Shown piece by piece: positions 12,501 to 61,054 of a stretch of DNA of 64,000 nucleotides. The stretch comes from Schmidtea polychroa (Eukaryota), in contig CM097885.1 in assembly GCA_044892525.1 (NCBI GenBank), positions 10,728,001 to 10,792,000 on the forward strand. The letters are read 5' to 3'. The notes under the pieces are model-generated. The model saw only the letters and a program-made list of their open reading frames with translations. It was not told the DNA's origin and searched no databases. The first letter of the stretch is position 1, and each line of letters begins with the position of its first letter. Made by a program: the position numbers and the translations under genes.

Positions 12501-14822
12501 TGGAAAGCAGATCAGACAGCAAATTGATGTGATTGAATCAAAATGTCAACAGCAAATTGATGAGATGAAAGAGAAATGCGAGCAGCGGCTGCAACAGGAG
12601 AATGAAAAGGTGATTTATTGATTATTTGAAATGTTTGAATTTGAGATTCAGTTGCAGCTTGAAATGGCGAAACGCGTCAATGAAATTCGGCATAATGAAA
12701 CAAAATTAGCAAATAAAAAATATATAAATGACGGATTTTTTGAATGGGAAATCGATAAATTTTCACAAAAAAAGATATATGAAAATATTTACAGCGAGGC
12801 ATTTTATTCCGGGCCAATCGGTTACAAAATGTGCTTGTGGGTGAGCATTGGGGATGATTGGGTTTGGGCTGGTTTCTGTTTGATGCGTGGGGCAAATGAT
12901 GAGCAATTGGATTGGCCGTTCAATCAATCCGTGACAATCGATGTGATCGATCCAGCAAATGGCAGCATTTATATGAGAGAGTCAAGGAAATATTCAGATT
13001 GCCCTCTTTATGATGCCGGATGGAGGAAACCGTCAAATGACAGAAATAATCCAATTGAGATTTATATTGGTGATCGCTCAACCTATAAATTAGCAACCAA
13101 AAGTGATAAATTGCTGCTCAGGTGCAGAATTGAAAAATTATGAAAAATTATAAAAACATTTCAATAAAAAATTGATTTATTTTGGCTTTTGATCAGTTTT
13201 ATTATTTGCCTTGTGCTGGTGGATCAATTTGTCTGGATCAGTTATTGATGCATTTGCCCAATTATAAACTGATTGCAACATTATTGATGATGTGGATCAG
13301 CTGTAACCGCATTTAATGCTGATTGGATCAAATCGGATCAGCAATTAATGAGCTTTGTGCAGATCCATTTATTGATCTGTTTTGAATCAATTTTATTGTT
13401 GCTCGTGATTTTGAATTGAAATATTTTGAAATTTTTACTTTTTCATTTTATATTCAAAATATTTATTTTCTATTTTGAAACATTTTTAATTTTTATTTTC
13501 TTTCCGATAAGTGAAATTTTTGCATTTTAATTTCCCTTCAATTGTTACGCTGCTTTGTTTACAAATTCAGATTTCAATTGCTATTTTATATTTCTCAACC
13601 AATTTCCCTCAAATATCAATAATATCGGAATTGCCGCCACCAATAAATGAGAAAATCAATGAAAATTAGCATTATATTGATATGAAATTGAATTATTTAT
13701 TGAACAGCTGTCATTATGAGCATGCAACACACATCATCAGGGATCTCACAATTGCTGTCATTATCTGATCTATTATATCAATGCGGATCAGATATTATGG
13801 CAGCCATGTTAGATTTCTATCAGATCATTTATTTGAATTTATTATAATAATATTGCAACTGAGCATTTCTTATAATTGAAGGTGAAAATGCATTTGATAG
13901 AATCCCTTGAGGCCAGCCATATTATCATTATCATTATCGATAAATACAATTCCATAGTTATGTTGCTAGGTTCAAGGCAGCAACCAAATTTACACCTTTA
14001 GGAGTTCCTTGAAATCTTCATCACATTCCCAACAATAATATCCATGGAAACATTGAACATTTCAACATCAACACGTTTTCTAGAGTCACAAAGTCTCTCA
14101 TTTTACTGAGTTTATCCAATATTTGAACGCTTTCATTTTAAATTTCTTTATGTTTGTCTGTTGTTCAAAATAAATGTTTTTTTTGTATTGATTATTTTTA
14201 TATTTATTCAATTTTTTTAAAATTTTTTAATAAATATTTGTTAATTTCTTTTAATTAAATATGAAATAAATGCAATTTTGGCAACATTTATGTGGCACTA
14301 ATAAAATATTTATTTTACACCATTTCCAAATAAGATCTGTTATAAGCTGTAAATTTCTACGTGATATTCATTTGACTGTCACTCTTTCATTTTGCTTTTC
14401 TTTATGTTTGTTTATTGTTTGTGAATTTTAGAAATTTTTTTTTAATCTCAAAACTCATGATATTTGGCTTTTTGTGAGACCCCCTTCAAAAATTTTGTTT
14501 CTAACTGTGAATATCGATGTGAATGGTGTCAGTGTGAAGCAATAAATTGACCTGCGGGATTTGGTTTGAAAGCCATTTTACATGCTTGAAAAAAATAATT
14601 TTTTTTTAAATTAAATTTTTAAATTAATATTTATTTATTTAGATTTATTTTTTTTTTCGTTTTATATTTAGTACATATTATTTTATTGTTTTCCAAATCT
14701 ATTTATTTATAATTACTATTTATATTTAAATTATTATTTATATTTTTTATTGAACCAATAATTTTCTTAAAAATACAATGATAAAAATTATATTGACGAT
14801 AAATAAAGAACATGGATAATTA
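9581..14822 (+). repeat. Segmental duplication copy 1 (~5.2 kb, contains TRAF gene)
   Basis: Colinear and highly similar to 46836-54038 once the 2-kb insert in that copy is removed. Confidence 0.95.
11683..13143 (+). CDS. TRAF: TRAF-family protein (RING, TRAF zinc finger, coiled coil, MATH), copy 1; intron 2 donor damaged
   Basis: Exons 11683-12279, 12326-12464, 12511-12609, 12652-13143. RING CRICKCLMIKACQAPCGCRFCSDC, ZnF CPMQNC...H...C and CPFNRIGC...H, MATH FEWEIDKFS...YSEAFYSGPIGYKMCL...LMRGANDEQLDWPF. A 6-bp deletion relative to copy 2 removes the phase-0 donor of intron 2. Confidence 0.85.
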
Positions 14823-18383: not shown

Positions 18384-18708
18384 GAAAGGGTAGAATTCAC
18401 GTTTAAGTTAAAACTGAATATTGCTAATAAACATTTAAATTGTATTTGTCAGATTACATAAATTTTTATATAAATATTTAAATTAATAAATTAAAGTAAG
18501 TTTAAAATATAAAAATAAATTAAAATATATTAAATATTAAAATAAATTAAACCAGCATTGAAATCAGCATCAAAATTAAAATATTAAAAAAGCCTCGAAC
18601 AGATTGTTTGAATATTACAAAAAAGCGCAGTTTTGTGAATAAAATAAATTTAGTAATTTTATTTGGTTAATTTATTAATTATGAAGATTGAACATGAATT
18701 CGACGTTG
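18384..18708. mobile_element. ~325-bp AT-rich insertion in pPolB-A
   Basis: Interrupts ELS(K)/LVMYKFIY. Weak terminal inverted similarity (gaattcacgtt / aacatgaattc). Confidence 0.55.
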
Positions 18709-20109
18709 TTGATAATTCTAAAATTATAAACCCTACATAATTAAATTTATCAAATTTTATAAAACTCTTTTTAAAATGAACTGCAGCAAAATGCTCTGAA
18801 AATATTTTAATTCTTTTAAATCCAGTCTTTGCAGACAAAACAAGAAACCTCTCTTTATTATTTACAATTTCAATATTCTGACCGTTTCTAACATTCTCCA
18901 AAGGCTTGCCATAAAATGAATTATTTAATAATTTATAAAAGAACTCTCCAAATTTATCTTGTTTCCTTTTAGCCTTAAATCTCTTTTTTATATTAAACTC
19001 TATATAAGATTTCAACCATTTTGATTTTTTATACATTAATTTTGAATGAACTTTTTCCAAAATCATTCCATTTTTCAAATGCCAATCCAACATCCTTCCT
19101 TCCACAGCATAATTCTTTTTATCAAGTTGAGTTTGAATTAATTTGTCAGTTGTCTTGTATCTATTCAAATTATTTTTGATTTCCCAAGGAGATAACCATT
19201 GATGGGGTACTTTTATTTTCTCAGGACAAAATGGGAAATGTTTAGTTTTGTCTTTTATACTATTTGGATATTTTAAATCTACTTTGTAAATAAACCCTTC
19301 TACGGAATTCTCTGAAGGTTGCCAACTCAAGTCTCTACACCATTTCATTTCTCCAGCTGGCAACCCTTCAATCATTGCTGTTGGATAGAAAGAATTTGTA
19401 TCAAAATAATATAAATAATTATTTGGTTCAGCATTCAAATTATGTAATCCTAAATTTTTCAAGAATTTAGTTTTTTCATCATTGAATTCATTCTCTGATC
19501 CATATGCTCCAGAGGCTCCTCCTCTCACTCCAATTCCTATAAATAATAATTGATCAAAAGTCTCATGTTTAAAATATTTTAATTTTCCTTTAGTATGTTT
19601 CAATCCTGCCAACCATGTCAATCCTGAAGATGAATAACAATAACATGGATCCATTTCATAATACATCAACCAAGAGACATGCATCATCCATCTTTAAATA
19701 ATTCATGGTGTAATCTTTCATAGTTCTACAATTTAATAATTCCCAAGATCCTTGAGCATAATTATAATCTTGGGTGGAAATATTAGATTGTTTCAAATGT
19801 GAATAGAATTCTCTAATATTTGGTAATTCTTCCTCGCTCATTTTGTCATCAACATCTCTAAACTCCCTCCCAGAAATGTATTCATAAGGATATATCCCTT
19901 TTCTTACTGGAATATTTCTATAATATTCACTATACACTTTACATTCTTCAGGTTTTAAAAGTGAAGCTAAATAGTCTCATCCAAAAGCCATCATTCTATA
20001 CGAGTCTAGAAAACTAAAAACTCCAACATTGAATGATATATAATTTTCATCTCTACTTGTCAAAACCTTTCCAATTTTCGGAGCCAACTCTCTGAATATT
20101 AAATGATTA

Positions 20110-22021: not shown

Positions 22022-22314
22022 ATAGTTTTTTCTCATCATTTATTTTAAATACATTGATTAAAATTTCAAGATTTTGTTTTTGGAATTTCTTTATCCCATC
22101 AATTGTAATTGGAAAATCTATCCCATTTAAATTCAATTCATTTTCAAATGGTTTATATTTTCCAACTCTATATGAATGTTCATTTGTAGAGATTGGTCAT
22201 AAAACTGCTAAAATACTCCAAACAAAACATTTGTTGCCATCATTTTGAATATTTAAAATGACATTTGATTTAAATGGAAGTTTTACAAATGTACCCCTTA
22301 TTGGTGATTTGTAT

Positions 22315-22547
22315 CCGATGACTCATTCAAGGTCATATGACTCATCCGATGACTCATTCAAGGCCATATGACTAATCCAATGACTCATTCAAGGTCATAT
22401 GACTCGTCCGATGACTCATTCAAGGTCATTCTCAAGGTCATATGAGTCATGCGATGAATCATGCAAAATTTTTTAAAATTTAAATTCTCAGAGTTCCCGC
22501 CAATGGTTTTTATTATTTAATAGCTCATTCGAAAGGTATTTGAATGG
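22315..22547. repeat. Left TIR remnant of element B with 30-bp minisatellite
   Basis: About 4 units of ccgatgactcattcaaggtcatatgactcat followed by unique TIR sequence inverted at 35004-35110. Confidence 0.9.
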
Positions 22548-29966: not shown

Positions 29967-30314
29967 TTAAACATCAAATTTTTTATACAACAACCAAGCT
30001 AAACAATGTTGACCACATGTTTGGGTCAATGGATTTTGAAACATAGTTTTAATATACATAATAGGTTTCCCCATTGTTTGCAGTTTTGATATCAATAAAG
30101 CCGGGTAATAAAAACCCATAGGATCGAATACGAAAATATTACTAGGTTTCACGTATATAGCTATCCAATGTTCTCCACCAAGATGAGACGATTGAGTATT
30201 GACGATTATGGCTTGATTATTTCTCAAATATGGAATTTTATCGAGAGGAAAAACTCCTACAAATTCATTTCCCAATATCTGTTTTCCAATTCGATTAACC
30301 TGAACAGAACTACT
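29967..30314 (-). CDS. Adenain-like cysteine protease (start codon not evident)
   Basis: FVGVFPLD...IIVNTQSSHLGGEHWIAI...FDPMG...FQNPLTQTCGQHCL contains the His, Asp, Gln and Cys catalytic set of Polinton/adenovirus maturation proteases. Confidence 0.9.
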   Translation of the reverse strand, partial: SSSVQVNRIGKQILGNEFVGVFPLDKIPYLRNNQAIIVNTQSSHLGGEHWIAIYVKPSNIFVFDPMGFYYPALLISKLQTMGKPIMYIKTMFQNPLTQTCGQHCLAWLLYKKFDV

Positions 30315-30377
30315 TTAATAAATTAAATAGTATCAAAAAACTTACTCCATGACAACTTTCTATATTTCTGTACACAT

Positions 30378-31601
30378 TTATACCAACACTGTTCTATTTG
30401 CAGTAATTTGAACTTCATTTTCAAATACTCCATAGATTATTACATGGACTGGTTCAGTAATTGCTTTTGCAAACTTTATATCCAGTCGTAAATTTCAATT
30501 TTGGGGTAATTGACTCTGATTTAAATCAAAATCGGGGGCTAAAACAAATGTAAAAAAAGGGTATTTGGTTTTAAATTCTTCTAGAGTTATTCCACAATTC
30601 AAATTTTTATCTAAATAACCCAGATTTCTAACAATACTCTGCATATATGTCGCACAGTAATTGTCATTCTCGAAATCTTGAATATATGTTTCTCTATAAT
30701 CAGTATTTTTCGACAAAGTCAATGATGTAACACCAAAGTTTTTGAAAATTGAGCTGGACGCAGTATATGATCCATTATATTGTGTTTCACTTTGAAATGT
30801 TATCAGAATAAAATTAGGCATTCTTCTATCACCAAATATTTGTTCTTTATAGAATAATGAAGCACCTTTAGCAATAGCGAATTGTACAATTTCCTTTGTT
30901 TTTAAAGGATAAATTGCATGTTTTGAATTAAGACCTAATTGATGACCAGCTAATACTGACGGGTCTACTCGAACTCTTCTCACCAATAATTTTGCATCAA
31001 CTAATTGACATATTGGTGCACCAATTGCACTAGTAAGAGATAATGCAGAATCAGACCTTTTCAGTCTAATATGTACATTAACTCCCGGTAGTTAATATTT
31101 CGGTTGATCCATAAAATCGAGTTGTAATGATGAGCACATGGTGAAAACCTTTGAGCCTTTAACCCACTTTTTTCTTTCATCATCTGCTGCTGCATAACCC
31201 ATAGGAGTAAGACATGTATTTTTAGTATCGGAATTGTAATTTAAAATAGTTTCTATTAATGCCTTGTGAATGAATGTATTATTTCCACCCTCAATCTTGA
31301 TATTATTAAATCCCAACACTGCATCTTTAAACAAAGTATGAAACAGGAAATTGTTCGGTATTACATCTGCATTGGCATCCAAAACTTTTCTATCTTTATC
31401 TACAACCTTGATCTGAACAGTCAATAAAGTATCATTCAAATCTAAATATTCAGTTTGCGAACCATTAATATAAAACTCTATATCATTTCTACTATCGGTA
31501 ATTGAATTCATAGGAAAAACTTCCTCAAACGCCCCAAATTCAATTACCGCTTGAGGCGATGGTCTATCAAATATACATAATTCGGATTTACCACAAATCA
31601 T
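30378..31601 (-). pseudogene. Major capsid protein (double jelly roll) of element B, disrupted
   Basis: KSELCIFDRPSPQAVIE...IEFYINGSQTEYLDLNDTLL..., VRRVRVDPSV...AIYP, C-terminal LRLDIKFAKAITEPVHVIIYGVFENEVQIT. Premature stop at 31092 and frameshift near 30495. Confidence 0.9.
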
Positions 31602-31966
31602 TTTGCAAATATAGTTCCATGTCCTTTCATTCGTTTGTTTATACGTGATATTCCATGTCTTTTACGTTTTGGAACAGGAGATGGAGCTGGAGATTTTTCT
31701 TTTTGAAACATACCTGCAACCCCGGGTAAAACTTTACCTAATTCAGCTAAAGCATTTGTTTTTAGAGATGGTAAATTTTTCTGTTCATTCATAATAACAT
31801 CTTTTGCAGTTTTCATACCAAAACTACCAATACGTTTAAGAATAGGCAATGCAAATCTACCAATTGTTCTCAACCATCCCGATCCGTATTGTTTACCAAT
31901 AAAATATGGTAATTCACCGCCAGATTGGCTACCACTATACATACTAATAATATCAGAATTTGCCAT
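31598..31966 (-). CDS. Small basic virion core-like precursor protein
   Basis: SQSGGELPYFIGKQYGSGWLRTIGRFALPILKRIG, with basic tail PKRKRHG..KRMKG. It lies between the minor and major capsid genes, as in other Polintons, and overlaps the MCP start (ATGA). Confidence 0.75.
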   Translation of the reverse strand: MANSDIISMYSGSQSGGELPYFIGKQYGSGWLRTIGRFALPILKRIGSFGMKTAKDVIMNEQKNLPSLKTNALAELGKVLPGVAGMFQKEKSPAPSPVPKRKRHGISRINKRMKGHGTIFAK

Positions 31967-32975
31967 CTACTTTACGAAAATGTAATGTCAAATGAGTTTT
32001 TGAACCTTTTGGAAAGTTTATAAGTTTTCCACTATCATCACGAATATTTATTTATATATTGTTTATACATGAACTTGCTATTGGTAAATACATGGGATTA
32101 TCGATATTTATATTGACAACTTCTTCATGTTCATATTTTCCAATCCATACCGATTTCAAAAGAGGAACACTGGAATCACCAACAATTATGGGTTCGATAA
32201 TGTTAGTATATATGAACATTTGTTGATGATGTTCTAGTATTTTTGGTTTGCGTATACCAGTCGATTTTTCTCGATATTTTTGCTTATCTAATCCAAGTGA
32301 ATTTGCCAAATTTTTATCAAATGTAACTTCGCAAATATCCTCATTCAAACTGAAGGTAAACATCAAATCTTTCACAATTTCCAAATTTTTAAATATGTGT
32401 GAACAATTGAACTTTAAATATTTAAGTAATACATCAAGTTTATCAAAATATAATTCAACAGCAAAGGTAAATGATTCTTCAACTTCATCATTATACGACA
32501 CAGATATTTTGATTTCTTCTTTCACTATACTGTTTGCTTCAAATAGATTAAAACGTAATAAATACTCGGTATCCGTAATAATATTTTTCAACTTATTGCA
32601 ACCCATTCGTTTGGCATCTTCAATAGTTTCGAATGTTATTGTAAATGGTTTAAAATCACAACTGATATTTAATCCATCCTTGTAAAACATATAGCAATGC
32701 GAATCTAAAATTTGATTCGGAATATGATATGTTTTATCATAATTACTGATAACAAAGATACCGCTACATGTTTTCACAATATTCCTTTTGAAATCAATCT
32801 TACATTGACTATAAAATGGGAATGTATTGTACACGAATGTAAAATCTTGCAGTGCAACTTCCCAGTCCCCATTTAAAGAAATCAGATTCTGGAGATTGAC
32901 CATGAATTTACTGGCTTGATTGTCTGGATGAATTAATGGGCAACTATTGCTTGGCAAAATAGTATAAAAATTCAC
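31953..32975 (-). pseudogene. Minor capsid (penton-like) protein of element B with premature stop
   Basis: FYTILPSNS...PDNQASKF..L...L.GDWEVAL and FIYTNIIEP.IVGD..VPLL...NPMYLP...INNI*INIRDDSGKLINF...LTLHFRK. The stop at 32052-32054 interrupts the conserved C-terminus. Confidence 0.88.
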
Positions 32976-33617
32976 TTTACTAGATCTTTTGCTGATATCC
33001 ATGACGGGTTTTGATAACCATGCCATTTGACATAGTATTGTTTATCCTTGCCGACCTTTTTAGTTTTCAATATTTTTTGAATTCTAAATACTTTTGGGGG
33101 AGGAATGACTTGTAATTCCTGCTTATAAAATTTCCCTTGTACAATATTATTATCATTATCTTTGATGACATACATTACAGGATTCTGTTTAGTATTTATT
33201 TTTGAAATTACAAAGACTTCATCACTCCAATTTGTATCAAAATTTTTAATAAATGGTGATGCACTAATTTTACTAATTCTAACATGGTCACCAACTTTAT
33301 ATTTAGGTTTTGCAATTTTTACAGAATTTTTAGAAGTCAATGATGTTTTTGATGTAATATCAACCGGTCTCAATCCATTCAGTCCTCGATGTGATGAATG
33401 ATTATAACTTGTTATTATTTTCGGTAATACATTTACCCATTTTTTATTACCTTGATGCACGAAAAATTTCTTTAATCATTCAATTTTTCTTATCTCTCAA
33501 TGTTCGATTAAATCTTTCGACATGGGCAGCTTTGTATTGAGAATGTACCGAGTAGTGATTTATTTTCAGTTTATCGAGAATTTGTTTAACTTTGCTATTG
33601 TAGAATTCTTTACCTAA

Positions 33618-33698
<81 letters not shown>

Positions 33699-34110
33699 CA
33701 TAATAATAATAATAATAATAATACCTAAATCTGTTTGCACGTTATTAGGATGTCAATCTTTAAATAAAATATTAATTGCCTTGGACATTTCTTCTGCAGA
33801 TTTTGCCTTGACTGGTATTGCTCGTGCAAACCTGCTGTATACATTAATACATGTTAAAATATATTTATTCCCATTGTTAATTTTCGAATAAGGTATCATC
33901 TCCATCAAATCCATTTGCCATAAATCGTCAATACCAAATGTTTTATAGTCTCTTGTTGGAAATCTTTTCCGCATTGGTTTGTTCAAACTGTACGCAAGCT
34001 GATCTGATAACCACTTCTGGGTTTCTTTTTTCGAATTCGGAACTCTTTTGTTTAATTTTGCCACCACCGAAACCGGCTTCGTCTTCTGGGTTCGTCCAAA
34101 TCTTCTCCAT
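32972..34110 (-). pseudogene. int: Retroviral-type DDE integrase with C-terminal chromodomain (element B), disrupted
   Basis: MEKIWTNPEDEAGFGG..., WQMDLMEM, QTDLGKEFYN, KAAHVERFNRTL, KYKVGDHVRI, NWSDEVF and chromodomain FRIQKILK...YYVKWHGY..PSWI. Frameshifts near 34065, 33750 and 33480, plus an (AAT)n insertion at 33619-33721. Confidence 0.93.
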
Positions 34111-34168
34111 TACAACAAGAAGATTTAAAATTAAATTTAATGTCGGGCAATGAAGGATTAGCACCCAT
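33943..34168 (-). CDS. Putative ~75-aa N-myristoylated, di-Cys protein overprinted on the integrase 5' end
   Basis: MGANPSLPDIKFNFKSSCCNGEDLDEPRRRSRFRW, then (after the same 1-nt lesion that shifts the integrase) KIKQKSSEFEKRNPEVVIRSACVQFEQTNAEKISNKRL*. Homologous frame at 41115-41347. Confidence 0.6.
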
Positions 34169-34171
34169 TGT

Positions 34172-34462
34172 TTATGATTGATTTCCTACAACTCCACCTA
34201 ATAATGATAATGCCAGAGGTATCAATGCACCAATAAATCCACCTTGTTGTTTATATATAATTTTCCTCATTTGCTTACGATTTTTATTATTTACTAATGA
34301 TAAAAAAGGTTTCCTATGTTTACTCAATAAATGCTTTTTTGATTTACTGATTTTAATTTTGCCTTTGACTACTTTAAGTATAATATTGAGTAAATCATCG
34401 ACAACAAAATTTGGGAATGATTGCAATATATTCATTCTTTTAATACTCGGGGCCTTTAACAA
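34172..34462 (-). CDS. Small basic protein with C-terminal QxGG plus hydrophobic helix (Polinton virion protein)
   Basis: ...LLNIILKVVKGKIKISKSKKHLLSKHRK...KQQGGFIGALIPLALSLLGG. A homologous remnant lies at ~40860-41110. Start codon not evident. Confidence 0.7.
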   Translation of the reverse strand: MLKAPSIKRMNILQSFPNFVVDDLLNIILKVVKGKIKISKSKKHLLSKHRKPFLSLVNNKNRKQMRKIIYKQQGGFIGALIPLALSLLGGVVGNQS

Positions 34463-34496
34463 TGCATTAAAAAATGAAAACTGCGATGATTTTTAA

Positions 34497-34721: not shown

Positions 34722-35003
34722 TCAACTTTGTTTATAAACCATGACACCTTTTGGGTTGAAAATATCTGTTTTTACTCGTAAATCATCGGGACATTGTTGT
34801 GTGAAATCAAGAAATATATATCCATGAGGTATTTTTGTAGCATCTTGAAATGCACTGATAAGAAAATTACGATTGTTAGGGTATGCTTGACGTGCAAGAA
34901 AATCAATCACTGTTGATTCTCTAGGATTCTTGAAAATAACTAAATATTGTACATTTAAATTACGTGTTCGATGTGCCCCACCTTGATGAAATAGATTTTG
35001 TGT
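34722..35003 (-). pseudogene. C-terminal fragment of A32/FtsK-like packaging ATPase (element B)
   Basis: TQNLFHQGGAHRTRNLNVQYLVIFKNPRES.VIDFLARQAYP...AFQDATKIPHGYIFLDF...LRVKTDIF. The Walker A/B half is deleted at the junction with the TIR. Confidence 0.88.
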
Positions 35004-35953
35004 CCATTCAAATACCTTTCGAATGAGCTATTAAATAATAAAAACCATTGGAGGGAACTCTGAGAATTTAAATTTTAAAAAATTTAGCATGACTCATCGC
35101 ATGACTCATATGACCTTGAGAATGACCTTAAATGAGCCATCGGATGAGTCATATGACCTTGAATGAGTCATCGGATGAGTCATATGACCTTGAATGAATC
35201 ATCGGATGAGTCATATGACCTTGAATGAATCATCGGATGAGTCATATGACCTTGAATGAGTAATCGGATGAGTCATATGACCTTGAATGAGTCATCGGAT
35301 GAGTCATATGACATTGAATGAGTAATCGGATGAGTCATATGACCTTGAATGAGTCAGCGGATGAGTCATATGACCTTGAATGAGTCATCGGATGAGTCAT
35401 ATGACCTTGAATGAGTCATCGGGTGAGTCATATGACCTTGAATGAGTCATCGGATGAGGCATATGACCTTGAATGAGTCATCGGATGAGTCATATGACCT
35501 TGTATGAGTCATCGGTCGAGTCATATGACCTTGGATGAGTCATCGGTCGAGTCATATGACCTTGAATGAGTCATCGGATGAGGCATATGACCTTGAATGA
35601 GTCATCGGATGAGTCATATGACCTTGAATGAGTCATTGGATGAGCCATATGACCTTGGATGAGTCATCGGTCGAGTCATATGACCTTGAATGAGTCATCG
35701 GATGAGGCATATGACCTTGAATGAGTCATCGGATGAGGCATATGACCTTGAATGAGTCATTGGATGAGTCATATGACCTTGAATGAGTCATCGGATGAGT
35801 CATGGTCTTTGTTTCAATGACCTTGATGAGTCATATGTCTTTGTTTAAAATTTGACCTTTTTTAAAATAATTTTAAATGGCGGGGTGGGTGGGGGAGGGG
35901 GGTATGTCTTTGTCCCAGAGGGCCGCTGGTTTAGTGGCCGCTATCCCTCTACT
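35004..35953. repeat. Right TIR of element B with ~23 units of a 30-bp minisatellite
   Basis: Unit ATGAGTCATATGACCTTGAATGAGTCATCGG at ~35100-35802, then a G-rich tract and the terminus ...ccctCTACT. Confidence 0.92.
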
Positions 35954-37691: not shown

Positions 37692-37781
37692 TTTTAAAAT
37701 AATAAAATAGATATTTGGAATCCAATTTTAACAATACATAAAAGTAAATTTAATAATAAAATTTTTCCTGAAAATTTTAGA

Positions 37782-38330
37782 TTGTTAATTGTTGGATCTT
37801 CAGGGTGTGGAAAGAATGTACTTCTTTTGAGAATGTTACTCGAGGATGGTTTTTTAGATTATAATAATTTAATATTTTATTCTACAACTATAAACCAACC
37901 AGAACTACAACTAGTGAAATGTGAATTTGAAAATAAATTAACTAAAAAAGGAATCATTGATATTTTTAAAAATCAACACAGATGTCCCGATAAAGTTCAT
38001 CAACCTTGTGATATGGCTGACTGGTACAAAGAGAAGATTTTAGAATCAAACATTGCTAATAAAAATGATTATGTTAGTGATGAATCAATACAAGTTTTAT
38101 TCTCCAACAAACCTGAAGATATATTACATTGTGATTTTCTTTCCAAAGATAAAACGAATCTAGCTATATTTGATGATGTTGTAAATAAGAAAAATCAAGA
38201 AATTCAAAAAAGTTATTTTACTCAAGGACGTCATAATAATTGTAATGTGATTTACATCTCTCAAACATATTATGCCTTGGATAAAAATTCAATTAGAAAC
38301 AACTCCAATTGTTTCATAATTTTAAATTAG
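37782..38330 (+). pseudogene. A32/FtsK-like packaging ATPase (element F)
   Basis: Walker A GSSGCGK(N), Walker B LAIFDD, YFTQGRHNNCNVIYISQ and IRNN. Frameshift and stop damage at both ends. Confidence 0.9.
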
Positions 38331-40859: not shown

Positions 40860-42873
40860 AGAATGACATTGCTTGAAATTATTGTTAATGTTGTGCGTGG
40901 CTATGTTGACATTAGTAAAGCGAAAGAACTTGTATTGCAAAACCATAAAAAATAACTTTTATCGTCAGTAAATAGACAGAATAAACGGATAATGCGAGAG
41001 ATTATATACAAACAGCGAGAGGGATTTATATCAACTTTGATAATAATTGCATTATCTTTATTAGATGGATCTGGTTTATTAGGTTGAGTTGCTTTATTAT
41101 CATCATCATAAACAATGGGTCAATTACCTATAGGACATTTACCCAACCTTATTCTAAATTTAAATCATCTTGTTGTAATGGAGTAGATATAGACAAACTC
41201 ATAAGATCCAGCAAGTTTCGGTGGAATCAAACAGTTCAAGAAAAAAGTACCAAAATCAAAAAAGGAGATTCAAAAATGGTTGTCGAGTTAACTGGAATAC
41301 AGTTTAAACAAACCAATGTTGAAACGGTTTCCCACAAGACCATATAAAAAACATATGGTATCAATGATTTATGGCAAATGAATTTAATGGAAATGATTCC
41401 ATTTTCTAAAATTAATAATGGTTACAAATATATTTTGACATATGTAAGGAGTTAGTAAACCCCTATATATTATGGTTAAATGGTAGAAGTGAGATCAGTT
41501 AGTAGAAATAATTATTTCTGTTAAATTTTTATATTTAAATTCTATATTAAATTATATCATATTATATTAAATTATATTAAATTAAATCAATTAAATGTAT
41601 GACCAGTAATTACATTAATATTAATATTTATCACGCCTCGGCGTTTAAATACGCTAGTAAACAGCTCAATTTTGAAGTTATAAAAATTAATTCTTGAATA
41701 AGATTTGAATTTAATTGCGCCTAACAACATATATTGATGTTTTTAGTAGATTTGCTCGAGCTATATCATTGAAAACCAAATCTGCTAGTGAAATGGCTGT
41801 TGCAATAAAAACAATGTTTAAAAATGGTAAACAAGATAATTTACAAACTAATTTGGGTAAAGAATTTTATAACAGCAAAGTTAAAAAAAACCTAAAGGGA
41901 ATAAATCATTACTCTGTTTTTTTCTCAATTCAAAGCTGCTCATGTGGAAAGGTTTAATAGAACATTAAGAGATCATTTGAAAAAATATTTTGTACATCAA
42001 GGTAACAAAACTTGGATAAATCTTTTACCGAAAATAATTCATAGTTAAAATCATTCCGAACATGGATGTCTAAAGAGAATGAGACCGATTGATGTAACAT
42101 CTAAAAATACTACGAAAATATTATTATCACAACAATATGTAACAAAAACTAAGAAACATAAATATAAATTTGGTGATCATGTTAGCATAAGTAAAATATC
42201 GGCTTCACCATTCATTAAAAATATTGACAACAACTGGAGTGACGAAGTCTTTCAAATATTAAAGAATTTTACGAAACAGAGTCCCGTTATGTATGTTATT
42301 AAAGATATTGATTATAATGAAATCCAGGGTAAATTTTACGAACAGGATTCGCAAGTTATTTCGACACCATCTGTCTTTAGAATTGAAAAAATTCTTAAAT
42401 CAAAATATAAAGGAAAAACAATATTACGTCAAGTGGCATGGATATCAAAACCCAACTTGAATATCAGCATCTCAAATTGAATGAATAGAAACAGTTTTTT
42501 CACTATTTTACGAAGCAATAGCTGTCCATTAATTCATCCGAATAATGATGCTACGAATAATGAGTTACAAAATCCCATCTACCTGCATGATATGTGGGAA
42601 GTTGCTTTACTTGATTACACATTTGTATACAACACATTTCCATTTTACAGTAATTCTAAGATTGAATATAAAGAAATTGCACTGAAATAAGTCAGCAGCT
42701 TTTATGTTATTGAACCCGAAGATGATGAAATGCCAATACAAGAATTATATAATGATTGTTACATGTATATTACCAAGGGAGTTTTAAATATTTGTTGGGA
42801 TTACCATCCATTCGAGATAACATTTGAAGATTCAGCAAGAATAAAATGATTAGGAGTTCTTGAACCAATTTTG
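40860..42873 (+). mobile_element. Decayed Polinton fragment E, related to element B (QxGG protein, overprinted ORF, integrase-chromodomain, minor capsid 5' part)
   Basis: Same gene order as B in the opposite orientation: LWQMNLMEMIPFSKINNGYKYILT, QTNLGKEFYN, HVERFNRTL, KISASPFIKN..NWSDEVF, FFTILRSNSCPLIHPNN...WEVALLDYTFVYNTFPFY. Many stops and frameshifts. Confidence 0.92.
41443..41726. mobile_element. Solo LTR inserted in the integrase of fragment E
   Basis: TGTAAGG...CCTAACA termini and 5-bp TSD ACATA (41438-41442, 41727-41731). Excision restores YILT-YIDVFSR. Confidence 0.88.
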
Positions 42874-46260: not shown

Positions 46261-47651
46261 AATACATAAAAATTCATTAACACATGTTTTACTATGCTAC
46301 TAATTTTCATACATTTACCAAATAGTACTGATGGTTTAAAAAATTGTTTACTAAAAGTTTATGTTAACGTAAAAATAATAGGGAGCAAAAAAAAGCCGAA
46401 AATATTTATAAAATATTTAATTTAGAATAAATCATGAAATCGAAAATTCTAAGATAAAAATTTACTTTCTCTAACTGTAAAATGTTGCTTCTCGAAAATA
46501 TCAAATCCCTGAGTCCTCGCGTGATCTGTTGTTGAAATAATTAGCTCGAAATTAGTCCTTAACTGTTGTCAATTTGGATCCTTGAATGCTAGAAATATCT
46601 TAAGAATTGTTGGGTTAACACTGAAAATTTTATTTCAGTGTCTCCCTTATATACCTAATTGTGAATGTGTGTGGACCAATCAAAATCGAGGCGGTTTTTA
46701 ATTATTTAGATTCTCTGTTTTTCGTTAATTTTCCTATTGTTTATTTATTCTTTCTTTATTTTTTATTTATTTTGTTATTAATTATTTAATTTTTATGTTA
46801 TTTTGCTATTTTTCTCGGTTTTCTTATCTTGATTATATATTGATTAAAGTAAAATAGTGTAAAAATGATGATTACATGTAATATTGAGTTTTAGTTGAAT
46901 ATTTTGAGTGCACAAGTATGCAATCAAGTGCTAAAATGTCCAAAAATATTTACTAATGCAAATATAATCAATTCTTTGTTGATTCGTGTTGAGTATTTGA
47001 TTATCGATCTGCAGTTTTTGTAATTTACAAATGATCTACTCGACAGATTTCCTACCAACTATACAATATTTGACTCTAAAATATGGGCCCCGCAACATGA
47101 TTAAATATGTTTTACAGGAAATATTGATTAATCAGTATATTGAATTTGCCAACAATCAAAGCAATCCAGATAAATAATCTCTATATCGTTACACTCGCAA
47201 TAAATTGCCTGCCAAGATGGTATAATAATTATCTAGAAATATTGATATTTTAATTTTGCACTCTAAAATCATTATTTAATAAATATTAGAAATCAAATAA
47301 ATTCTCTACATGATCAATAAAGTTGAAATATTGATATTGATCAAAAATATTGATTTTTTTTGGTATGCAGCTTTCACCTCAAATATTCAACATTTAAACA
47401 AAATTACTTGTAAATCATTCGATTCGTAATCAAAGCTCTAGAAGCTGGCATCGTCATATTTTATAATTATTCATTATTAATATTTTCACTATAAAATGTT
47501 GATGAAAATATTTATCTATCCAAGGGCACCAATAATGAGTTTGATATCTTGGACTGAATGCATTTATCTTTTTCATTGAAATCAATAGTGATAGGTTCAT
47601 ATATTGGGGCTAGATCTAGCACTGATTTAGTAATTACAATTTATAAATAAA

Positions 47652-49653
47652 AAAAAGAGACGAAATAAAAATAATTATGTAGAACTTGAAGTGTTGATGC
47701 TTCAAGAGAGTCCAAGGGAGGACAAAGAGGAAAAGACTATGGTCATAGAACCAGAGGTCTGTGAGGGTTTACAGGTTTCACCCAGGAAAAATCTAGTGGC
47801 TGTGGCCATGGAGCCAGAAGCCAACAGAAAAATAGAAGGTTTACCGGTTTCACCAGTTAAAAATCGTAAGGCTATGGACATGGATCCAGTAGTTAATGAA
47901 AGTGTTCCAACAGAAGTTTTGGAAAAAAGATGGGCTTCGGTCATTGAGCCGGAAGTTCTTATAGCCACATCATCCATGCGAGGTGAGTGTGGTAGCGAAC
48001 CAATAAAGGTTAGAGAAGCATCGAAAGAGGAAAGAAATCCCATCGATGACTGTAGAAAAATACTATTACGCAAGAGCGTATGGCAAATAGAAATAAGACA
48101 GAAATTAGAAAATATTCGTTTAAACCCCGTTAATGAGAATGAGGTTGACAAAGTAATGGATATCATAACAGAATTAGACAGAAATGAGGAATATTATCCA
48201 GAATTGAGAGAAATTCTGAGAAATATTGGCCTAAATTGGAAACAAAGAGAGAATCTGGAGGATTCTATAATTTTTGTATCTTTCCCAAAGGGTTGTTTTC
48301 GTAGATATACAATTAACCCAAGTGAAAAGGTAGAAGCATTGGCAAAGAGAGTTTCTGTGGTAAAACCTCAATTGAGATGCAAACTATATTTATTGGGAGA
48401 AAGATTATTAGAGGGAGAAACCCTGTTAGATTGTGGTATATTACCAGGGAAAAATATGGTTATAAAAGCAAAGTTTCACAAGGAAACTGTTACAGTAGTG
48501 GACTTGGATAATGTCCTTACAATAAGCGAGATTGAAATTGATCAATTAAATCAAATATCAGCCGTACCACATAGATTGGGAATTGAGCTGATGAAAAGCC
48601 CAAGAGATGGGGAAGCCATTAAGATGATAATGGATTGGATACTGGAGTTGAGAATCCCAGTAGATACTCTTAGAGAGATAATGCCATTGGTGGTGCCTTT
48701 AGTAAAAGAGACATCACAATTTCAGACTCAAGCAAAGATGCTGTTGATTAAAAATGGACATGCTATCAGACATTTGGAAGGTAGACAAGGTCCAGTGATG
48801 CTAGATATCAGGATACCCAGGAGAGGACACCTGATACAACAATTCTCATGTTATCATAGAGTAAAGAAACTGAGAAAAAGAATATCAGAAATAGTAAAAG
48901 AGTCATTCCTAATAATGATACATGGTTGTCAGGTGGATGACGACGAATTTCTAGTAGATGTTGGATGTTTTCCCAACGAGGAGACAGTTGTATTAATATT
49001 ACTGGTAGAGTTTCCAGAGGATCAATGGGCAACTTTGAGATTGCCAGATAATGCTGAAATGGAGGATGAAACAGTACATCCTGAGCAAAAACAAATAGAC
49101 GGGAATACTCATCAGGAAACCGTAACTACAGTAGATTTAGATGAAGAGATAGATAAGTATCTCAAGGAACTTGATAACACTGAAGACGAGTTGGTCGAAA
49201 TATTTCCTACAGAGGAAGATAAGGAAGTACAATTAAATCGAAATGAAACAAACATCGGAGCTAGTACATCGCGACAAGTCGAGCCACCAAGAGCAAGGGT
49301 GAGCCCGAGGTTAATAGAGAATAAAAAGAAAAGGGAGAGAAGGGGTAGACCGAGGAAAAGTCAAATGAACCAACCTCCAAGAGAACTTCTTAAACCAGTT
49401 ACAATACAAAATGTAACGAAGCAGGCTCTAGCAGGGATAGCTAGCCAAATCGATAAAAGCGTTGGAGATGCTAGTGATAAAACGGAAACATGGAAAAGAT
49501 TGAATCAAATCTTACGACTGATTAAGCCCGATTGGCAAACCAAGAAAGATAAAAGTGTTAATGTTGACAAAATTGCAGAAAAAGTCAAGAAAGCTATGGA
49601 AAAGATTCCAGGAAGCACTACAGAACAGGAGATGTTAGACAGTTATTCATTTG
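47652..49653 (+). mobile_element. 2.0-kb insertion absent from the paralogous site
   Basis: The empty site is at 10391/10410 with ~18 bp of target replaced. No TSD, TIR or 3' poly(A). Purine-rich coding composition. Confidence 0.85.
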
Positions 49654-49694
49654 ATACAATTTCTCAACAATTTTACTCTGTTTTCAAATTTTGA
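47691..49694 (+). CDS. 667-aa intronless ORF with two putative ubiquitin-like domains, SIM-like motifs and an AT-hook; 3'-truncated
   Basis: IIFVSFPKG...INPSEKVEALAKRV......KLYLLGERLLEGETLLDCGILPGKNMVI (~48261-48475) follows the beta-grasp Ubl pattern. A second, weaker unit lies at ~48791-49005, and RRGRPRK at ~49336-49358. The last ~13 codons derive from host flank. Confidence 0.65.
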   Translation: MLMLQESPREDKEEKTMVIEPEVCEGLQVSPRKNLVAVAMEPEANRKIEGLPVSPVKNRKAMDMDPVVNESVPTEVLEKRWASVIEPEVLIATSSMRGECGSEPIKVREASKEERNPIDDCRKILLRKSVWQIEIRQKLENIRLNPVNENEVDKVMDIITELDRNEEYYPELREILRNIGLNWKQRENLEDSIIFVSFPKGCFRRYTINPSEKVEALAKRVSVVKPQLRCKLYLLGERLLEGETLLDCGILPGKNMVIKAKFHKETVTVVDLDNVLTISEIEIDQLNQISAVPHRLGIELMKSPRDGEAIKMIMDWILELRIPVDTLREIMPLVVPLVKETSQFQTQAKMLLIKNGHAIRHLEGRQGPVMLDIRIPRRGHLIQQFSCYHRVKKLRKRISEIVKESFLIMIHGCQVDDDEFLVDVGCFPNEETVVLILLVEFPEDQWATLRLPDNAEMEDETVHPEQKQIDGNTHQETVTTVDLDEEIDKYLKELDNTEDELVEIFPTEEDKEVQLNRNETNIGASTSRQVEPPRARVSPRLIENKKKRERRGRPRKSQMNQPPRELLKPVTIQNVTKQALAGIASQIDKSVGDASDKTETWKRLNQILRLIKPDWQTKKDKSVNVDKIAEKVKKAMEKIPGSTTEQEMLDSYSFDTISQQFYSVFKF

Positions 49695-50852
49695 TTTAAA
49701 TAATTTTGAAAGATATTTAAAAATATTAATTTTGTTTTTAAACAAAAATTTTGGAAATTAAGTTACAAATAAATAAGGAAAATTTTGAAAAATTAACATT
49801 AGTCGAATTTCAAATCTCAATTTTTTCTAAAAAACAATATTTATAAAATGTTTGTTTATCTACATCAAAAAACATATTTTAAATATTGAAATTTCAAAAG
49901 TAAGAGGAAATAATTATTATTTATAATTATAATTTATGAATGTTGAAAAACTTTGAAATATTTTAATAATTTCATAATGAAATATTTAATAGATTTATTT
50001 TCACAATTATTGATTTGAAACTTAATCGAATCTGACAAAATATTTGGTTTTTTAAAATTTTCTCAGATATTAATATTTTATTTATTTAATTATTTTACTA
50101 CAAATTTTCATTTTCCCGATTGACTTATTTTAATTATTTCATAAAATTCTTGATACAAGATTTAGATTAAATGTTCTGAGTGAATTATATTCTAATATTT
50201 GGATCAGTGAAATATCCTTATCCAATTGTGGATCATTCCCAATATTTATAACCATAACCAGATCATTAGATCAAATGCCAAAACCCCACAATTTCTGAAT
50301 ACATTAATAACCCGTTTAGCGTTACCCAGTAAAATGTTATTCAAATCCTAAACAATTTTTCCTTTAAAAATTATTGAAAATTGTTGAAAAGTATTTTGAA
50401 AAACAATATTGATTTTATTAAAAAGAGCTTGAAGACTATAAATGAGTAAATATATCAAAAGCAATATCAATAGCTCTTTTTAATAAATTCAATGGAAAAA
50501 AATCGAAGGTGAAATTGGAATATTTATTTTTATATTTTGATCTATTTTTAATTTAGATTTTCCGTTTAATGTTACTTAATTTCCCATCAAAATTTTACGT
50601 AGTTTTATCAAATTTCAATTTAAATAATTTTGTAAGATTTAAAATAAATGAGAAAAACACTGAAAATTAACATTAATAATATATCAAAAAGCGCGCGAAG
50701 CTAAAATACAATACTTATAAAATGTTTGTTTATCTACATCAAAATACAAATTATAAATATTGAAATTGTCAACGTCAGAGGAAATATTAATATAATAAGT
50801 ATGATTTATGAAAGTTGTAAAATGTTGAAATATTTTGTAAATTTTAGATAAA

Positions 50853-52340
50853 ATGTTTGCAAGCGTATGGGAAATAATGAGGAGAAATAAATTTGAATTT
50901 GATAATGAAATTAGCAGTGAATTGATATGCAGAATTTGCAAATGTTTAATGATAAAGGCTTGCAATGCTCCTTGCGGTTGTCGCTTTTGTTCTGATTGCA
51001 TTGAGCATTATTTGGATGGAAAAGATAAATTCTGTCCAGGAGCAGCAAAATATTGTCAAGTTCAAATGTTTAATTTCAATGAAAATGTTTTCCAAGATCA
51101 GGCGATTAACTTAAGAATATCTGAAGTCATTGTAAAATGCCCAATGCAAAATTGTGAATTCAAAACCGAGTTGTGCATGATGGAGAGCCACATGAGAACA
51201 TGCAACAAGCAGCCAATCAGATGTCCGTTCAATAGAATTGGATGCGAAATGAATGAGGTGGAGAAGGAGGAAATGAAAGTCCATCTCTATGAGAACAATG
51301 AAGGCCACAGCAAATTATTGATCGATCAGATCAGTAATTTATGCAATGAAATGCAATCAATGAGAGATGAGAATGTGAAATTGCGTAATGAAATTATCGA
51401 ATTGAAAGGAGAAATGACGCAATTCAAACAACAATTTGATAATATCAATGTAAATTTTATTTTTAATTAATTTTATTGATATTTTGCGATTGTAGGTAAA
51501 ATTGAGTAATGTTGAAAGGAAAGAGGCGGAGAACAGAGAGGAAATAGAAGAATTGAATGAGGAAATGGTGGCATTGAAGAATGAGAATCGCTCATTGAGA
51601 ATGGAGACGGAGACAAATATTGGATCAATCAATCAAGTTTGTATATTGATTTGATTTGTTATTGATTTGTTATTGATGGAAAGCAGATCAGACAGCAAAT
51701 TGAGGTGATTGAATCAAAATGTCAACAGCAAATTGATGAGATGAAAGAGAAATGCGAGCAGCGGCTGCAACAGGAGAATGAAAAGGTGATTTATTGATTA
51801 TTTGAAATGTTTGAATTTGAGATTCAGTTGCAGCTTGAAATGGCGAAACGCGTCAATGAAATTCGGCATAATGAAACAAAATTAGCAAATGAAAAATATA
51901 TAAATGACGGATTTTTTGAATGGGAAATCGATAAATTTTCACAACAAAAGATATATGAAAATATTTACAGCGAGGCATTTTATTCCGGGCCAATCGGTTA
52001 CAAAATGTGCTTGAGGGTGTGGATTGGGGATGATTGGGTTTGGGCTGGTTTCTGTTTGATGCGTGGGGCAAATGATGAGCAATTGGATTGGCCGTTCAAT
52101 CAATCCGTGACAATCGATGTGATCGATCTAGCAAATGGCAACATTTATATGAGCAAGTCAATGAAATATTCAGATTGCCCTGATCAGGATTCTGATTATG
52201 CAGATCATAGATGGAGGAAACCGTCGAATGACAGAAATAATCCAATTGAGATTTATGGTGATGATGAAGCCAGCTCAATCAATAAATTAGCAGCCAAAAG
52301 TGATAAATTGCTGCTCAGGTGCAGAATTGAAAAATTATGA
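50853..52340 (+). CDS. TRAF: TRAF-family protein (RING, TRAF zinc finger, coiled coil, MATH), copy 2, intact, ~449 aa
   Basis: Exons 50853-51449, 51496-51636, 51687-51785 and 51828-52340, with phase-0 GT-AG introns of 46, 50 and 42 nt. The spliced frame is open. Confidence 0.92.
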
Positions 52341-54609
52341 AAACATTTCAATAAAAAATTGATTTATTTTGGCTTTTGGTCTGATTTATTATTTGCCTCG
52401 TGCTGGTGGATCAATTTGTCTGGATCAGTTATTGATGCATTTGCCCAATTATAAACTGATTGCAACATTATTGATGATGTGGATCAGCTGTAACCGCATT
52501 TAATGCTGATTGGATCAAATTGGATCAGCATTTAATGAACTTTGTGCAGATCCATTTATTGATCTGTTTTGAATCAATTTTATTGTTGCTCGTGATTTTG
52601 AATTGAAATATTTTGAAATTTTTACTTTTTCATTTTATATTCAAAATATTTATTTTCTATTTTGAAACATTTTTAATTTTTATTTTCTTTCCGATAAGTG
52701 AAATTTTTGCATTTTAATTTCCCTTCAATTGTTACGCTGCTTTGTTTACAAATTGAGATTTCAATTGCTATTTTATATTTCTCAACCAATTTCACTCAAA
52801 TATCAATAATATCGGAATTGCCGCCACCAATAAATGAGAAAATCAATGAAAATTAGCATTATATTGATATGAAATTGAATTATTTATTGAACAGCTGTCA
52901 TTATGAGCATGCAACACACATCATCAGGGGATCTCACAATTGCTGTCATTATCTGATTTATTATATCAATGCGGATCAGATATTATGGCAGCCATGTTAG
53001 ATTTCTATCAGATCATTTATTTGAATTTATTATAATAATATTGCAACTGAGCATTTCTTATAATTGAAGGTGAAAATGCATTTGATAGAATCCCTTGAGG
53101 TCAGCCAAATTATCATTATCATTATCGATAAATACAATTCCATAGTTATGTTGCTAGGTTCAAGGCAGCAACCAAATTTACACCTTTAGGAGTTCCTTGA
53201 AATCTTCATCACATTCCCAACAATAATATCCATGGAAACATTGAACATTTCAACATCAACACGTTTTCTAGAGTCACAAAGTCTCTCATTTTACTGAGTT
53301 TATCCAATATTTGAACGCTTTCATTTTAAATTTCTTTATGTTTGTCTGTTGTTCAAAATAAATGTTTTTTTTGTATTGATTATTTTTATATTTATTCAAT
53401 TTTTTTAAAATTTTTTAATAAATATTTGTTAATTTCTTTTAATTAAATATGAAATAAATGCAATTTTGGCAACATTTATGTGGCACTAATAAAATATTTA
53501 TTTTACACCATTTCCAAATAAGATCTGTTATAAGCTGTAAATTTCTAAGTGATATTCACTTGACTGTCACTCTTTCATTATGCTTTTCTTTATGTTTGTT
53601 TATTGTTTGTGAATTTTAGATAATTTTTTTTAATCTCAAAACTCATGATATTTGGCTTTTTGTGAGACCCCCTTCAAAAATTTTGTTTTTAACTGTGCAT
53701 ATCGATGTGAATAGTGTCCGTGTGAAGCAATAAATTGACCTGCGGGATTTGGTTTGAAAGCCATTTTACATGCTTGAAATTTTTTTATTTTTTTTAGATC
53801 AACTGTAAAAAATACTTTTTTTTTAAATTAAATTTTTAAATTAATATTTATTTATTTTGATTTATTTTTTTTTCGTTTTATATTTAGTACATATTATTTT
53901 ATTGTTTTCCAAATCTATTTATTTATAATTACTATTTATATTTAAATTATTATTTATATTTTTTATTGAACCAATAATTTTCTTAAAAATACAATGATAA
54001 AAATTATATTGACGATATATAAAGAACATGGATAATTAGTAGTATGATTGGGGCTCCCCAGATCAGGAGCTCCCCGCATCACATATACCCCCCCCGGGGA
54101 AAAAATTTTTTTTTAGAACGATGCCACATATTTTTAGAACTATTACGTAATCAATGCCTAATATTTTTAGAACGATGCCTAATATTTTTAGAACTATTAC
54201 GTAATTTTTTTAAATTAATTGGTCCAGCGGTGACCTACTTTTTTTCTTCCCAAAAGTAATGTTCCCGCCAACAAATTTTATTGAACGATACCTCATCTTA
54301 AAGCCCAGTGCCAGACCTTTAAGATGTGCCATAGGTATTTTATATATCTTTATATATATATCTTTTAATGTTATTAACAATTGATGACCACCATCTTTTC
54401 AATGTTAAATTATTATTATTCAAAATATTATTATTTGGTCCAGCGGTGACCTACTTTTTTTCATCCCAAAAATTAATGTTTCCATCATCTGAATTTATTG
54501 GACGATACCTCATCTTAAAGCTTAGTGCAAGACCTTTCGAATGAGCTATTGACGGTATCATCATCCTTAATATTAACAAAGAGAATGACTCACCCAATGA
54601 CTCACCCAA

Positions 54610-56385: not shown

Positions 56386-56546
56386 CTGCTAGAATATAAA
56401 TATAAAAAAAATAAAAAAAAAATAAAAATAAAAATAAAAAAATAAAAAAAATAAAAATAAAAAAAAATAAAAATAAAAATAAAAATAAATATATAAAAAT
56501 TTAAAATTTAAAAACAACGTATCCAGTAAAAAAATTTTTTCTAAAA

Positions 56547-59690: not shown

Positions 59691-59719
59691 TTTAAAAGTT
59701 TTTTTATGGGGGAATCTAC

Positions 59720-60860: not shown

Positions 60861-61054
60861 TATTTGGATAGCGGTTCAAATCCTAACTACGGTTAGTTTT
60901 TTTTAACATAAAATAATATTAAAAATTTGAAAATAATATTGAAAATGGTGTGGGTATCTTAGATTTATATTTTATTTTATTTATTTTTATTTTATTTTAT
61001 TTATTTTATTTTATTTTTTTATTAATTAAAAATTTAAAAAATGACAAAAATCCG

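Follow-up and report, generated by a model that had tools for sequence, protein, structure and literature searches.

At the start of a Polinton integrase gene in the window (by which we mean the whole 64,000-nucleotide stretch of DNA analysed), a short open reading frame (ORF) begins with Met-Gly, continues to a pair of cysteines and then runs into the integrase in another frame, raising the question of whether it is a gene in its own right and, if so, what its product might do for the element. The initial annotation had proposed an unannotated, lipidated membrane protein acting in egress or entry. The comparisons described below support the first part of this proposal, an unannotated and selected ORF that overlaps the integrase start and carries an invariant Gly2 and Cys pair, and we are highly confident that it is a real, translated gene.

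The window belongs to an AT-rich eukaryotic genome of 781 Mb. The ORF was found in element B, a decayed Polinton-type element on the minus strand flanked by inverted arms (22313-22547 and 35004-35238, 95%); the inner part of the inverted repeats is a 31-bp tandem array spanning ~35100-35930 on the long side and 22313-22470 on the short side. The genes of B run in the order ATPase fragment, small pm-like gene, MG...CC ORF, integrase, penton-, PW- and capsid-like ORFs, adenain, and a 1302-aa ORF, and a second decayed copy, element E, occupies 41115-42481 on the plus strand (Table 1). With an integrase bearing a chromodomain, an adenain and a packaging ATPase, element B fits a Polinton/Maverick of the adintovirus type. 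Pfam searches returned rve (PF00665, E 1.3e-10) and chromodomain (PF00385, E 8.4e-6) for an E-family integrase protein, to which the integrase pieces of B in the window are 61-88% identical, as well as Peptidase_C5 for the adenain of the B module (E 2.9e-6), Pox_A32 for a sibling ATPase (E 3.6e-7) and a weak Adeno_PX match for the pm-like gene of the E family (E 0.084), and no family above the cut-off for the 1302-aa ORF and the capsid-like pieces of B. The names penton, PW, capsid, PolB, pm and pz are our presumptive assignments, made from position without a family match; the small upstream gene is taken to be pm from its position, the same as that of pm in vertebrate Mavericks.

Table 1. Coordinates of the small ORF and its neighbours in elements B and E of the window.
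Feature	Position	Strand	Remarks
Small MG...CC ORF, copy B	33943..34168	-	75 aa in siblings; ATG at 34168, stop 33945-33943
Conserved non-overlapping head of B ORF	34112..34168	-	Gly2 34163-34165, alternating-hydrophobic stretch, Cys-Cys 34112-34117
Overlap of B ORF with integrase codons 1-56	33943..34110	-	Basic, predicted-disordered tail, -1 frame
rve + chromodomain integrase of B	32972..34110	-	Broken: frameshift near 34064, at least one stop
Proximal ATAAAC box of B	34170..34175	-	7 nt before ORF ATG; overlaps stop of upstream gene
Distal ATAAAC box of B	34249..34254	-	86 nt before ORF ATG, within upstream gene
Upstream small core-type (pm-like) gene of B	34172..34492	-	Ends in amphipathic segment
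Packaging ATPase 3' fragment of B	34722..35027	-	Full-length sibling matches Pox_A32
Downstream virion module of B: penton-, PW-, major-capsid-like ORFs and adenain protease	29967..33041	-	
Small MG...CC ORF, copy E	41115..41347	+	77 aa in siblings
Proximal ATAAAC box of E	41108..41113	+	
Decayed integrase of E	41178..42481	+	Several stops, frameshifts, one insert

Both ORF copies are as initially described in coordinates and peptides, and in both families the integrase ATG (34110 in B) lies within the Asn-Gly codons that follow Cys-Cys. Each copy had been said to carry one 1-nt lesion; measured against one sibling each, E does have a 1-nt deletion, near 41159, but the lesion of B is a 2-nt deletion near 34064. 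An open 75-aa ORF was found in 29/29 fetched B siblings, which are the best 30 of 40 scored from 2419 candidates and are 98-99% identical, non-independent and biased to young copies. An open 77-aa ORF was found in 28/29 E siblings, the best matches among 1687 candidates, with the remaining one stopping after the Cys pair; the siblings of B and E thus amount to no more than two lineages. The ORF stop falls 56 integrase codons past the integrase ATG in the B and E families alike, an overlap of a length that has P = 0.0007 (B) and P = 0.0035 (E) under synonymous re-drawing of the integrase. The avoidance of T before stop-making junctions, noticed earlier in the integrase codons, was borne out by the siblings, where T occupied 0/14 such sites in B and 0/12 in E.

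A wider sample was assembled from metagenomes, using an alignment of 57 integrases to fetch 80 loci, the best of 145 confirmed. The close set comprised 41 loci, including one B and one E copy, with integrases at least 47% identical to that of E, and collapsed into 29 lineages at 85%, of which two had no upstream DNA, one was cut but had the motif, and 26 were complete (rows dropped were L123, with no anchor, L076 and L085/L089, with no upstream DNA, and L093, cut with the motif present). In 25/26 complete lineages, an ORF of the form Met-Gly...Cys-(x)-Cys begins before the integrase ATG and is again read in the -1 frame, and because it recurs in this way across the clade the overlap is more than chance. 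These ORFs start 49-277 nt before the rve integrase ATG and encode products of 50-160 aa. The sole complete close lineage without the ORF, L096, has kept the neighbouring genes. Among distant lineages, 0/30 had an MG...CxC ORF in any frame upstream of the integrase, in a check where 29/31 rows (L096 included) had at least 150 nt of upstream DNA. In trees computed without L005, which has an insert, and L104, a short contig, the carriers and L096 form one clade (support 100/99; 100/100 on columns outside the overlap). The MG form occurs in this clade alone, and the integrase domain has a longer history. Two ORF types were distinguished, one with a short head in 14 lineages, B and E among them (CC), and one with a longer head in 11 (CAC). 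The CAC lineages and L096 form a sub-clade (99/98), and CC monophyly was neither recovered nor excluded (p-AU 0.31); between the two types the overlap may have either lengthened or shortened.

Also found, in three loci with distant integrases (~40%), were Cys-Cys ORFs without Gly2 that lie just before the integrase in the same -1 frame (L120:2350-2583, L113 and L121). The frame in L120 is open for 54 codons from W-64, counting from the Trp (W) of the integrase WQMDL motif (P 0.002). The Gly-less ORFs match the family profile weakly, at 13 and 6 bits, and may be relatives or an independent case. Between the pm-like gene and the small ORF, some loci contain a further ORF, a presumptive pz (L081:2029-2334, L088:1223-1510, L120:1736-2347); it is 204 aa in the distant loci L113/L120 and ~100 aa in the CAC loci L081/L088, and in none of the inspected CC lineages was a pz-like ORF seen between the pm-like gene and the integrase. 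Identity of the small ORF with pz was considered and rejected, as the small ORF is too short and a pz-like gene coexists with the CC-type ORF in L113/L120.

Database searches indicated that this small gene family of one Polinton clade, itself real, is apparently unnamed. A profile built from 25 ORFs recovered 49 representatives at 50% identity among 1.84 billion proteins, and the 48 library matches that were fetched, which in part are the query loci themselves, included 40 that start Met-Gly, 5 with Met-Gly within 12 residues and 3 without Met-Gly, all of which have Cys in the first 20 residues. Ten library matches were looked up and none had an informative name. There was no match in a word-based homologue search with the 75-aa ORF, none in Pfam for the B and E ORFs and no Pfam family common to more than 2/25 members; a PDB sequence search gave one chance match only (E 0.29), the ESM Atlas gave no usable feature match, its structure rows falling below the bar, and scans of viral contigs yielded no relative of the ORF. 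A genome pattern search for the CAC-type motif returned 6 matches vs 5 in the control, none beside an integrase.

Conservation lies mainly in the non-overlapping head of the ORF, with M1, G2 and the two Cys invariant in 25 lineages. Gly2 uses all four of its codons (12/9/3/1) and follows the first in-frame ATG in 24/25 lineages, Ser codons in the head are of the TCN as well as the AGY kind, and identity at the three codon positions amounts to 0.68/0.72/0.50 for CC and 0.74/0.82/0.43 for CAC lineages, a codon pattern that points to selection on the head at the protein level. Part of the conservation of the CAC motif may be at the DNA level, because its Ile-Asn codons spell an ATAAAC box in 8/11 CAC lineages. 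Hydrophobic residues occupy positions -8, -6 and -4 from CC in 36, 38 and 39 of 40 library matches, compared with at most 6/40 elsewhere, a pattern suggesting an amphipathic strand. No transmembrane segment was found in the product, and the AlphaFold model is unstructured (pLDDT 58, pTM 0.14). Beyond the Cys pair, the first 12 residues range in net charge from -6 to +2, making the acidic patch variable; the 15 residues after the motif contain a mean of 3.8 Asp/Glu, and the tail is net basic in 13/14 CC lineages.

The head was initially read as an MGxxxS myristoylation signal with a nearby Cys-Cys palmitoylation site. N-myristoylation calls for a small uncharged residue at position 3 and Ser/Thr or a small residue at position 6. 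In 25/25 lineages residue 3 is neither charged nor aromatic nor Pro (Asn 15, Ala 5), and residue 6 is Ser/Thr in 9/25, Pro in 6/25 and Asp in 3/25, so that MGxxxS/T as such occurs in only 9/25 lineages although Gly2 is invariant; among library matches, Ser/Thr6 is found in 28/45. The full pattern is present in 10/25 lineages and 27/45 library matches, B fitting it and E, with Met6, not. Dual-acylation signals of the SH4 type have Cys within ~10 residues of Gly2; the Cys pair, invariant as it is, lies beyond this textbook distance, 11-18 (CC) or 22-44 (CAC) residues after Gly2, and some members have extra Cys near the start. Taken from these motifs, myristoylation of Gly2 and S-acylation of the Cys pair are probable.

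Evidence of a different kind comes from the overlapping tail, to which, rather than to the conserved head outside the integrase, the original description of the ORF as overprinted on the integrase applies. The CC overlap covers 38-129 integrase codons and is significant against synonymous re-drawing in 13/14 lineages (P<0.05). In a fixed segment of the conserved integrase domain, a test that also left out L005 and L104, T occurred at 3/115 sites where it would make a stop in the ORF frame, compared with 61/180 other contexts of the same segment and 366/670 in the core. The CAC lineages (25/80) and distant lineages (56/199, P 0.04) served as controls and were only slightly depleted, stop purging in CC being about tenfold stronger; by lineage, purging was detected in only 2/11 CAC. 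From a fixed start, the frame is open for at least 28 codons in 12/13 CC lineages, 1/10 CAC and 5/31 controls. At non-stop sites, two-fold codons end in C in 23/44 cases vs 74/342 (P 6e-5), a bias absent from CAC; L073 was excluded from this codon test, in which the GF-motif count matched only 6/9 CAC loci. Since the lineages are related, the pooled P values overstate independence. In L084, which has a duplicated 9-codon tail motif, 4/4 differences between the repeats are silent in the ORF frame. Stops in the frame and loss of the MG...CC start, named in the initial annotation as evidence against its reading, were not common among the 14 CC lineages. The CC overlap is selected for staying open, and the tail is truly dual-coded in the branch to which B and E belong.

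Two further expectations were not borne out. Synonymous variability is not reduced, with four-fold synonymous identity of 0.38 in the overlap vs 0.35 in the core, and the equivalent stop seen in B and E does not extend across the family: the ORF stop ranges from W-65 to W+14 and falls in the same place as in B and E in 3/14 CC lineages and 8/40 library matches. Because 24/35 B-vs-E changes in the overlap sit at the first codon position of the ORF and four-fold identity is not raised, we conclude that the tail drifts. The overlap only just reaches into the conserved integrase domain in the 11 CAC lineages, and across both types it ranges from 9 to 129 codons.

A promoter-like box links the ORF to other genes of the element. 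The hexamer ATAAAC occurs 45-25 nt before the ORF ATG in 12/14 CC and 3/10 CAC lineages, against a background of 0.011 per such interval, and in those 12 CC lineages it lies 30-38 nt before the ATG. It also precedes the ATPase (9/11), penton (5/11), capsid (MCP; 3/5) and PW (2/6) genes. In 10/14 CC lineages the TAA of the box is also the stop codon of the upstream gene, compared with only 7/418 TAA within ATAAAC in the core. No box stands between the ORF ATG and the integrase ATG in any CC lineage (0/14), so one mRNA likely serves both the small ORF and the integrase in 11/14, where leaky scanning to the integrase is plausible. Out-of-frame ATGs before the integrase ATG were not significantly depleted (0 vs 2.2 expected, P 0.08). 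B has boxes at -86 and -7 only and none at the usual distance, E-family siblings have boxes at -38 and -7, the -38 box being absent from the E copy in the window, and L061 has a sole box at -14. If transcripts start ~25-30 nt after a box, the -7 box of B and E may yield an integrase-only mRNA that skips the ORF ATG, and leaky scanning, part of the initial proposal, would then not be needed in these two; the ORF's own expression route in B is uncertain. Contigs from presumed-RNA runs cover the ORF and are uninformative on strand, start and translation.

Because its place and box tie the ORF to the structural module, the reading we favour, at slightly better than an even chance, is a late-expressed, likely lipidated membrane adaptor that would link virion parts to host membranes in assembly, exit or entry. 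Myristate on Gly2 and S-acylation of the Cys pair would anchor the product to membranes, the amphipathic beta-strand before the Cys pair would contact a partner or the membrane surface, and in the disordered, acidic-then-basic tail length and charge would matter more than sequence. Late timing and a role in the particle cycle are suggested by the promoter box and position, and in 11/14 CC lineages the shared mRNA would supply integrase at a lower level by leaky scanning. A more specific form of this adaptor, tentative and rather doubtful, is an envelopment or egress factor with two lipid anchors, translated from the late mRNA of the integrase, with strand and tail recruiting capsid or integrase to membranes in the manner of herpesvirus UL11. 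As described in the available part of PMC7403781, UL11 is a small disordered late protein with a myristoylated Gly, palmitoylated Cys, an acidic cluster and a basic, disordered C-terminus. The Polinton ORF resembles it in Gly2, the Cys pair, predicted disorder and a tail that is net basic in 13/14 CC lineages, and differs in having no Pfam or PDB match and a variable acidic cluster; moreover, the virions in which UL11 acts are enveloped, whereas the capsid genes of Polintons are adenovirus-like and no envelope step has been described for them. Were the UL11-like reading true, adenovirus-like elements would exit from or gain entry to cells by a membrane-bound step, and the overlap would couple the dose of integrase to it.

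Lipid anchors could instead be carried by a non-structural modulator of the host at the plasma membrane or Golgi, acting in signalling or silencing suppression as geminivirus C4/AC4 does. The likeness in anatomy is close, since C4/AC4, in the available text of PMC8496806 and PMC8160170, is a small (~10 kDa), disordered and fast-changing ORF over the 5' part of a gene for a DNA-processing, replication-type enzyme, with Gly2 myristoylation and Cys palmitoylation sites (PMC8496806), and the Polinton ORF can be lost, as in L096. We nevertheless consider host modulation unlikely, as the ORF has the same box as the ATPase/capsid module and is invariably located within this module, between the pm-like gene and integrase, whereas candidate host-modulating genes (Bcl-2-like, weak) sit in the accessory region. 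No C4/AC4 family appeared in the Pfam matches of the 25 members at E up to 5; C4 lies wholly within Rep in begomoviruses, in the sources available, but the conserved head of the Polinton ORF lies outside the rve integrase; and the Polinton ORF belongs to the virion module of an animal-type dsDNA element, with its own structural-gene box. Built like C4/AC4 and UL11, the ORF would be unrelated to either, alike in anatomy without a sequence match. A similarly low probability attaches to the idea that the Cys pair and strand, rather than being palmitoylated, bind a virion protein as a protease cofactor, of which adenovirus pVIc is an example, or as a disulfide-linked cement peptide; Gly2 may in that case still carry myristate, as capsid penetration peptides do. 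A virion partner would fit three observations: strand and Cys pair together are the most conserved feature of the ORF, with a specificity beyond what acylation usually requires; the Cys pair is distant from Gly2; and the element encodes adenain. The motif is internal, though, with no evident adenain site to release it (by eye, against the consensus), the Gly-less relatives have N-terminal Cys instead, as fits a membrane anchor, and no solved structure matched.

The remaining explanations assign the peptide a secondary role or none. An overlapping upstream ORF might mainly throttle integrase translation, which would agree with its strong start context (purine at -3 in 19/25), with the box-free stretch between the two ATGs in 14/14 CC lineages, and with an ORF end past the integrase ATG that prevents re-initiation. 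This seems quite improbable to us: a few codons of overlap would suffice for throttling, not 38-129, the invariant Gly2 and Cys and the codon-position pattern would go unexplained, and a second box in B, E and 8/11 CAC lineages may give the integrase its own mRNA. That no protein is made, and that signals in DNA or RNA (promoter, splice signal) together with integrase-frame constraints account for the conservation, is close to refuted. The integrase indeed imposes most of the similarity among tails, some of the CAC motif is at the same time a promoter box, and AT-rich, Lys-rich N-termini are slightly stop-depleted even in the distant controls, but third positions vary most in the head, its Ser and Gly2 codons are mixed as described above, and the purging of stops far exceeds that in controls. 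The membrane adaptor of the structural module remains the preferred reading.

Membrane-active accessory genes of other kinds have been reported from related elements. The available text of PMC8502044, which screened ORFs >100 aa, describes adintovirus PLA2X, GasderminX and Cupiennin together with numbered "Adintoc" ORFs, and that of PMC11071296 defines a "Macc" class, mentioning myristoylation signals only for Macc-class proteins such as polyomavirus VP2. The small ORF shares with Adintoc and Macc genes, as presented there, the character of small conserved virion-module genes with a proposed membrane role; PLA2X, GasderminX and Cupiennin differ in being separate ORFs with lipase, gasdermin-like or amphipathic domains, and in those sources none is described as overlapping integrase. 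The text and the readable part of the supplement of PMC8502044 do not mention myristoylation, and five motif terms of the ORF were found 0 times in the readable part of the protein-sequence supplements of PMC11071296. The vertebrate Maverick core set in the available part of PMC8097293 comprises polB, atp, pm, pz, int, mcp, pw, Mcp and pro. The same core genes occur here, in the order atp, pm-like, small ORF, int, penton, pw, Mcp, pro on one strand, and the difference is that the part of PMC8097293 available names no small ORF before int and no gene overlap. Membrane, myristoylation and overlap are unmentioned in PMC11161782, and the available portions of 10.1101/2025.04.19.649669 and 10.1101/2025.02.07.637071 contain nothing on the ORF. 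No description of it was found in this literature; GenBank adintovirus maps, slides and large supplements could still name it.

Particles of animal Polintons have not been observed, according to the available part of PMC8097293, and how they would cross membranes, if made, is a question touched by a late-module gene with predicted lipid anchors, a membrane step that in this form was previously not known to be encoded by Polintons. The small gene, shorter than the 100 aa usually required for annotation and concealed by the integrase, adds to the core map of a large Polinton clade, and it would represent a convergent C4/UL11 design in a third virus group. A 75-aa protein with two signals is also a small, cheap test object, and the series of overlaps from 9 to 129 codons offers natural material on the growth or shrinkage of gene overlaps.

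Several other features of these elements were recorded. The B-family integrase carries a GT..AG insert of ATT repeats (window ~33614-33724, minus strand; L005:2280-2354), with a length that ranges over 42-195 nt in 29 copies and is divisible by 3 in 28 of them, and 28/29 E copies are uninterrupted at the junction of this insert; the E integrase in the window has an AT-rich insert of ~275 nt at ~41447-41720. In two B copies, L013 and L014, the integrase frame continues into the penton-like frame, giving 604 aa to the locus end without the usual chromodomain end. A short TBP-like gene (PF00352, E 4e-15 and 3e-15) stands head-to-head with the ATPase in the B and E families (L157:7201-7626 and L158:6683-7147, both minus strand), with a similar ORF at L066:294-740, and a weak Bcl-2-like ORF was seen at L157:4850-5161. 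One metagenome locus has a tandem pair of penton-like ORFs (L066:3490-4545 and 4545-5558). Further Polinton-type pieces in the window, at 56505-60875, 37698-38330 and 18659-19976, include PLA2-like (E 4e-9), double-jelly-roll (E 1e-17) and A32-type ATPase (E 3e-8) matches, a zinc-finger ORF and polymerase-like fragments. The window also contains a duplication (~9600-14000 and 46900-53200) whose copies are 94-99% identical and ~39 kb apart, and the duplicated segment includes ORFs with TRAF-type zinc-finger and MATH domains (50841-51470, 51798-52340).
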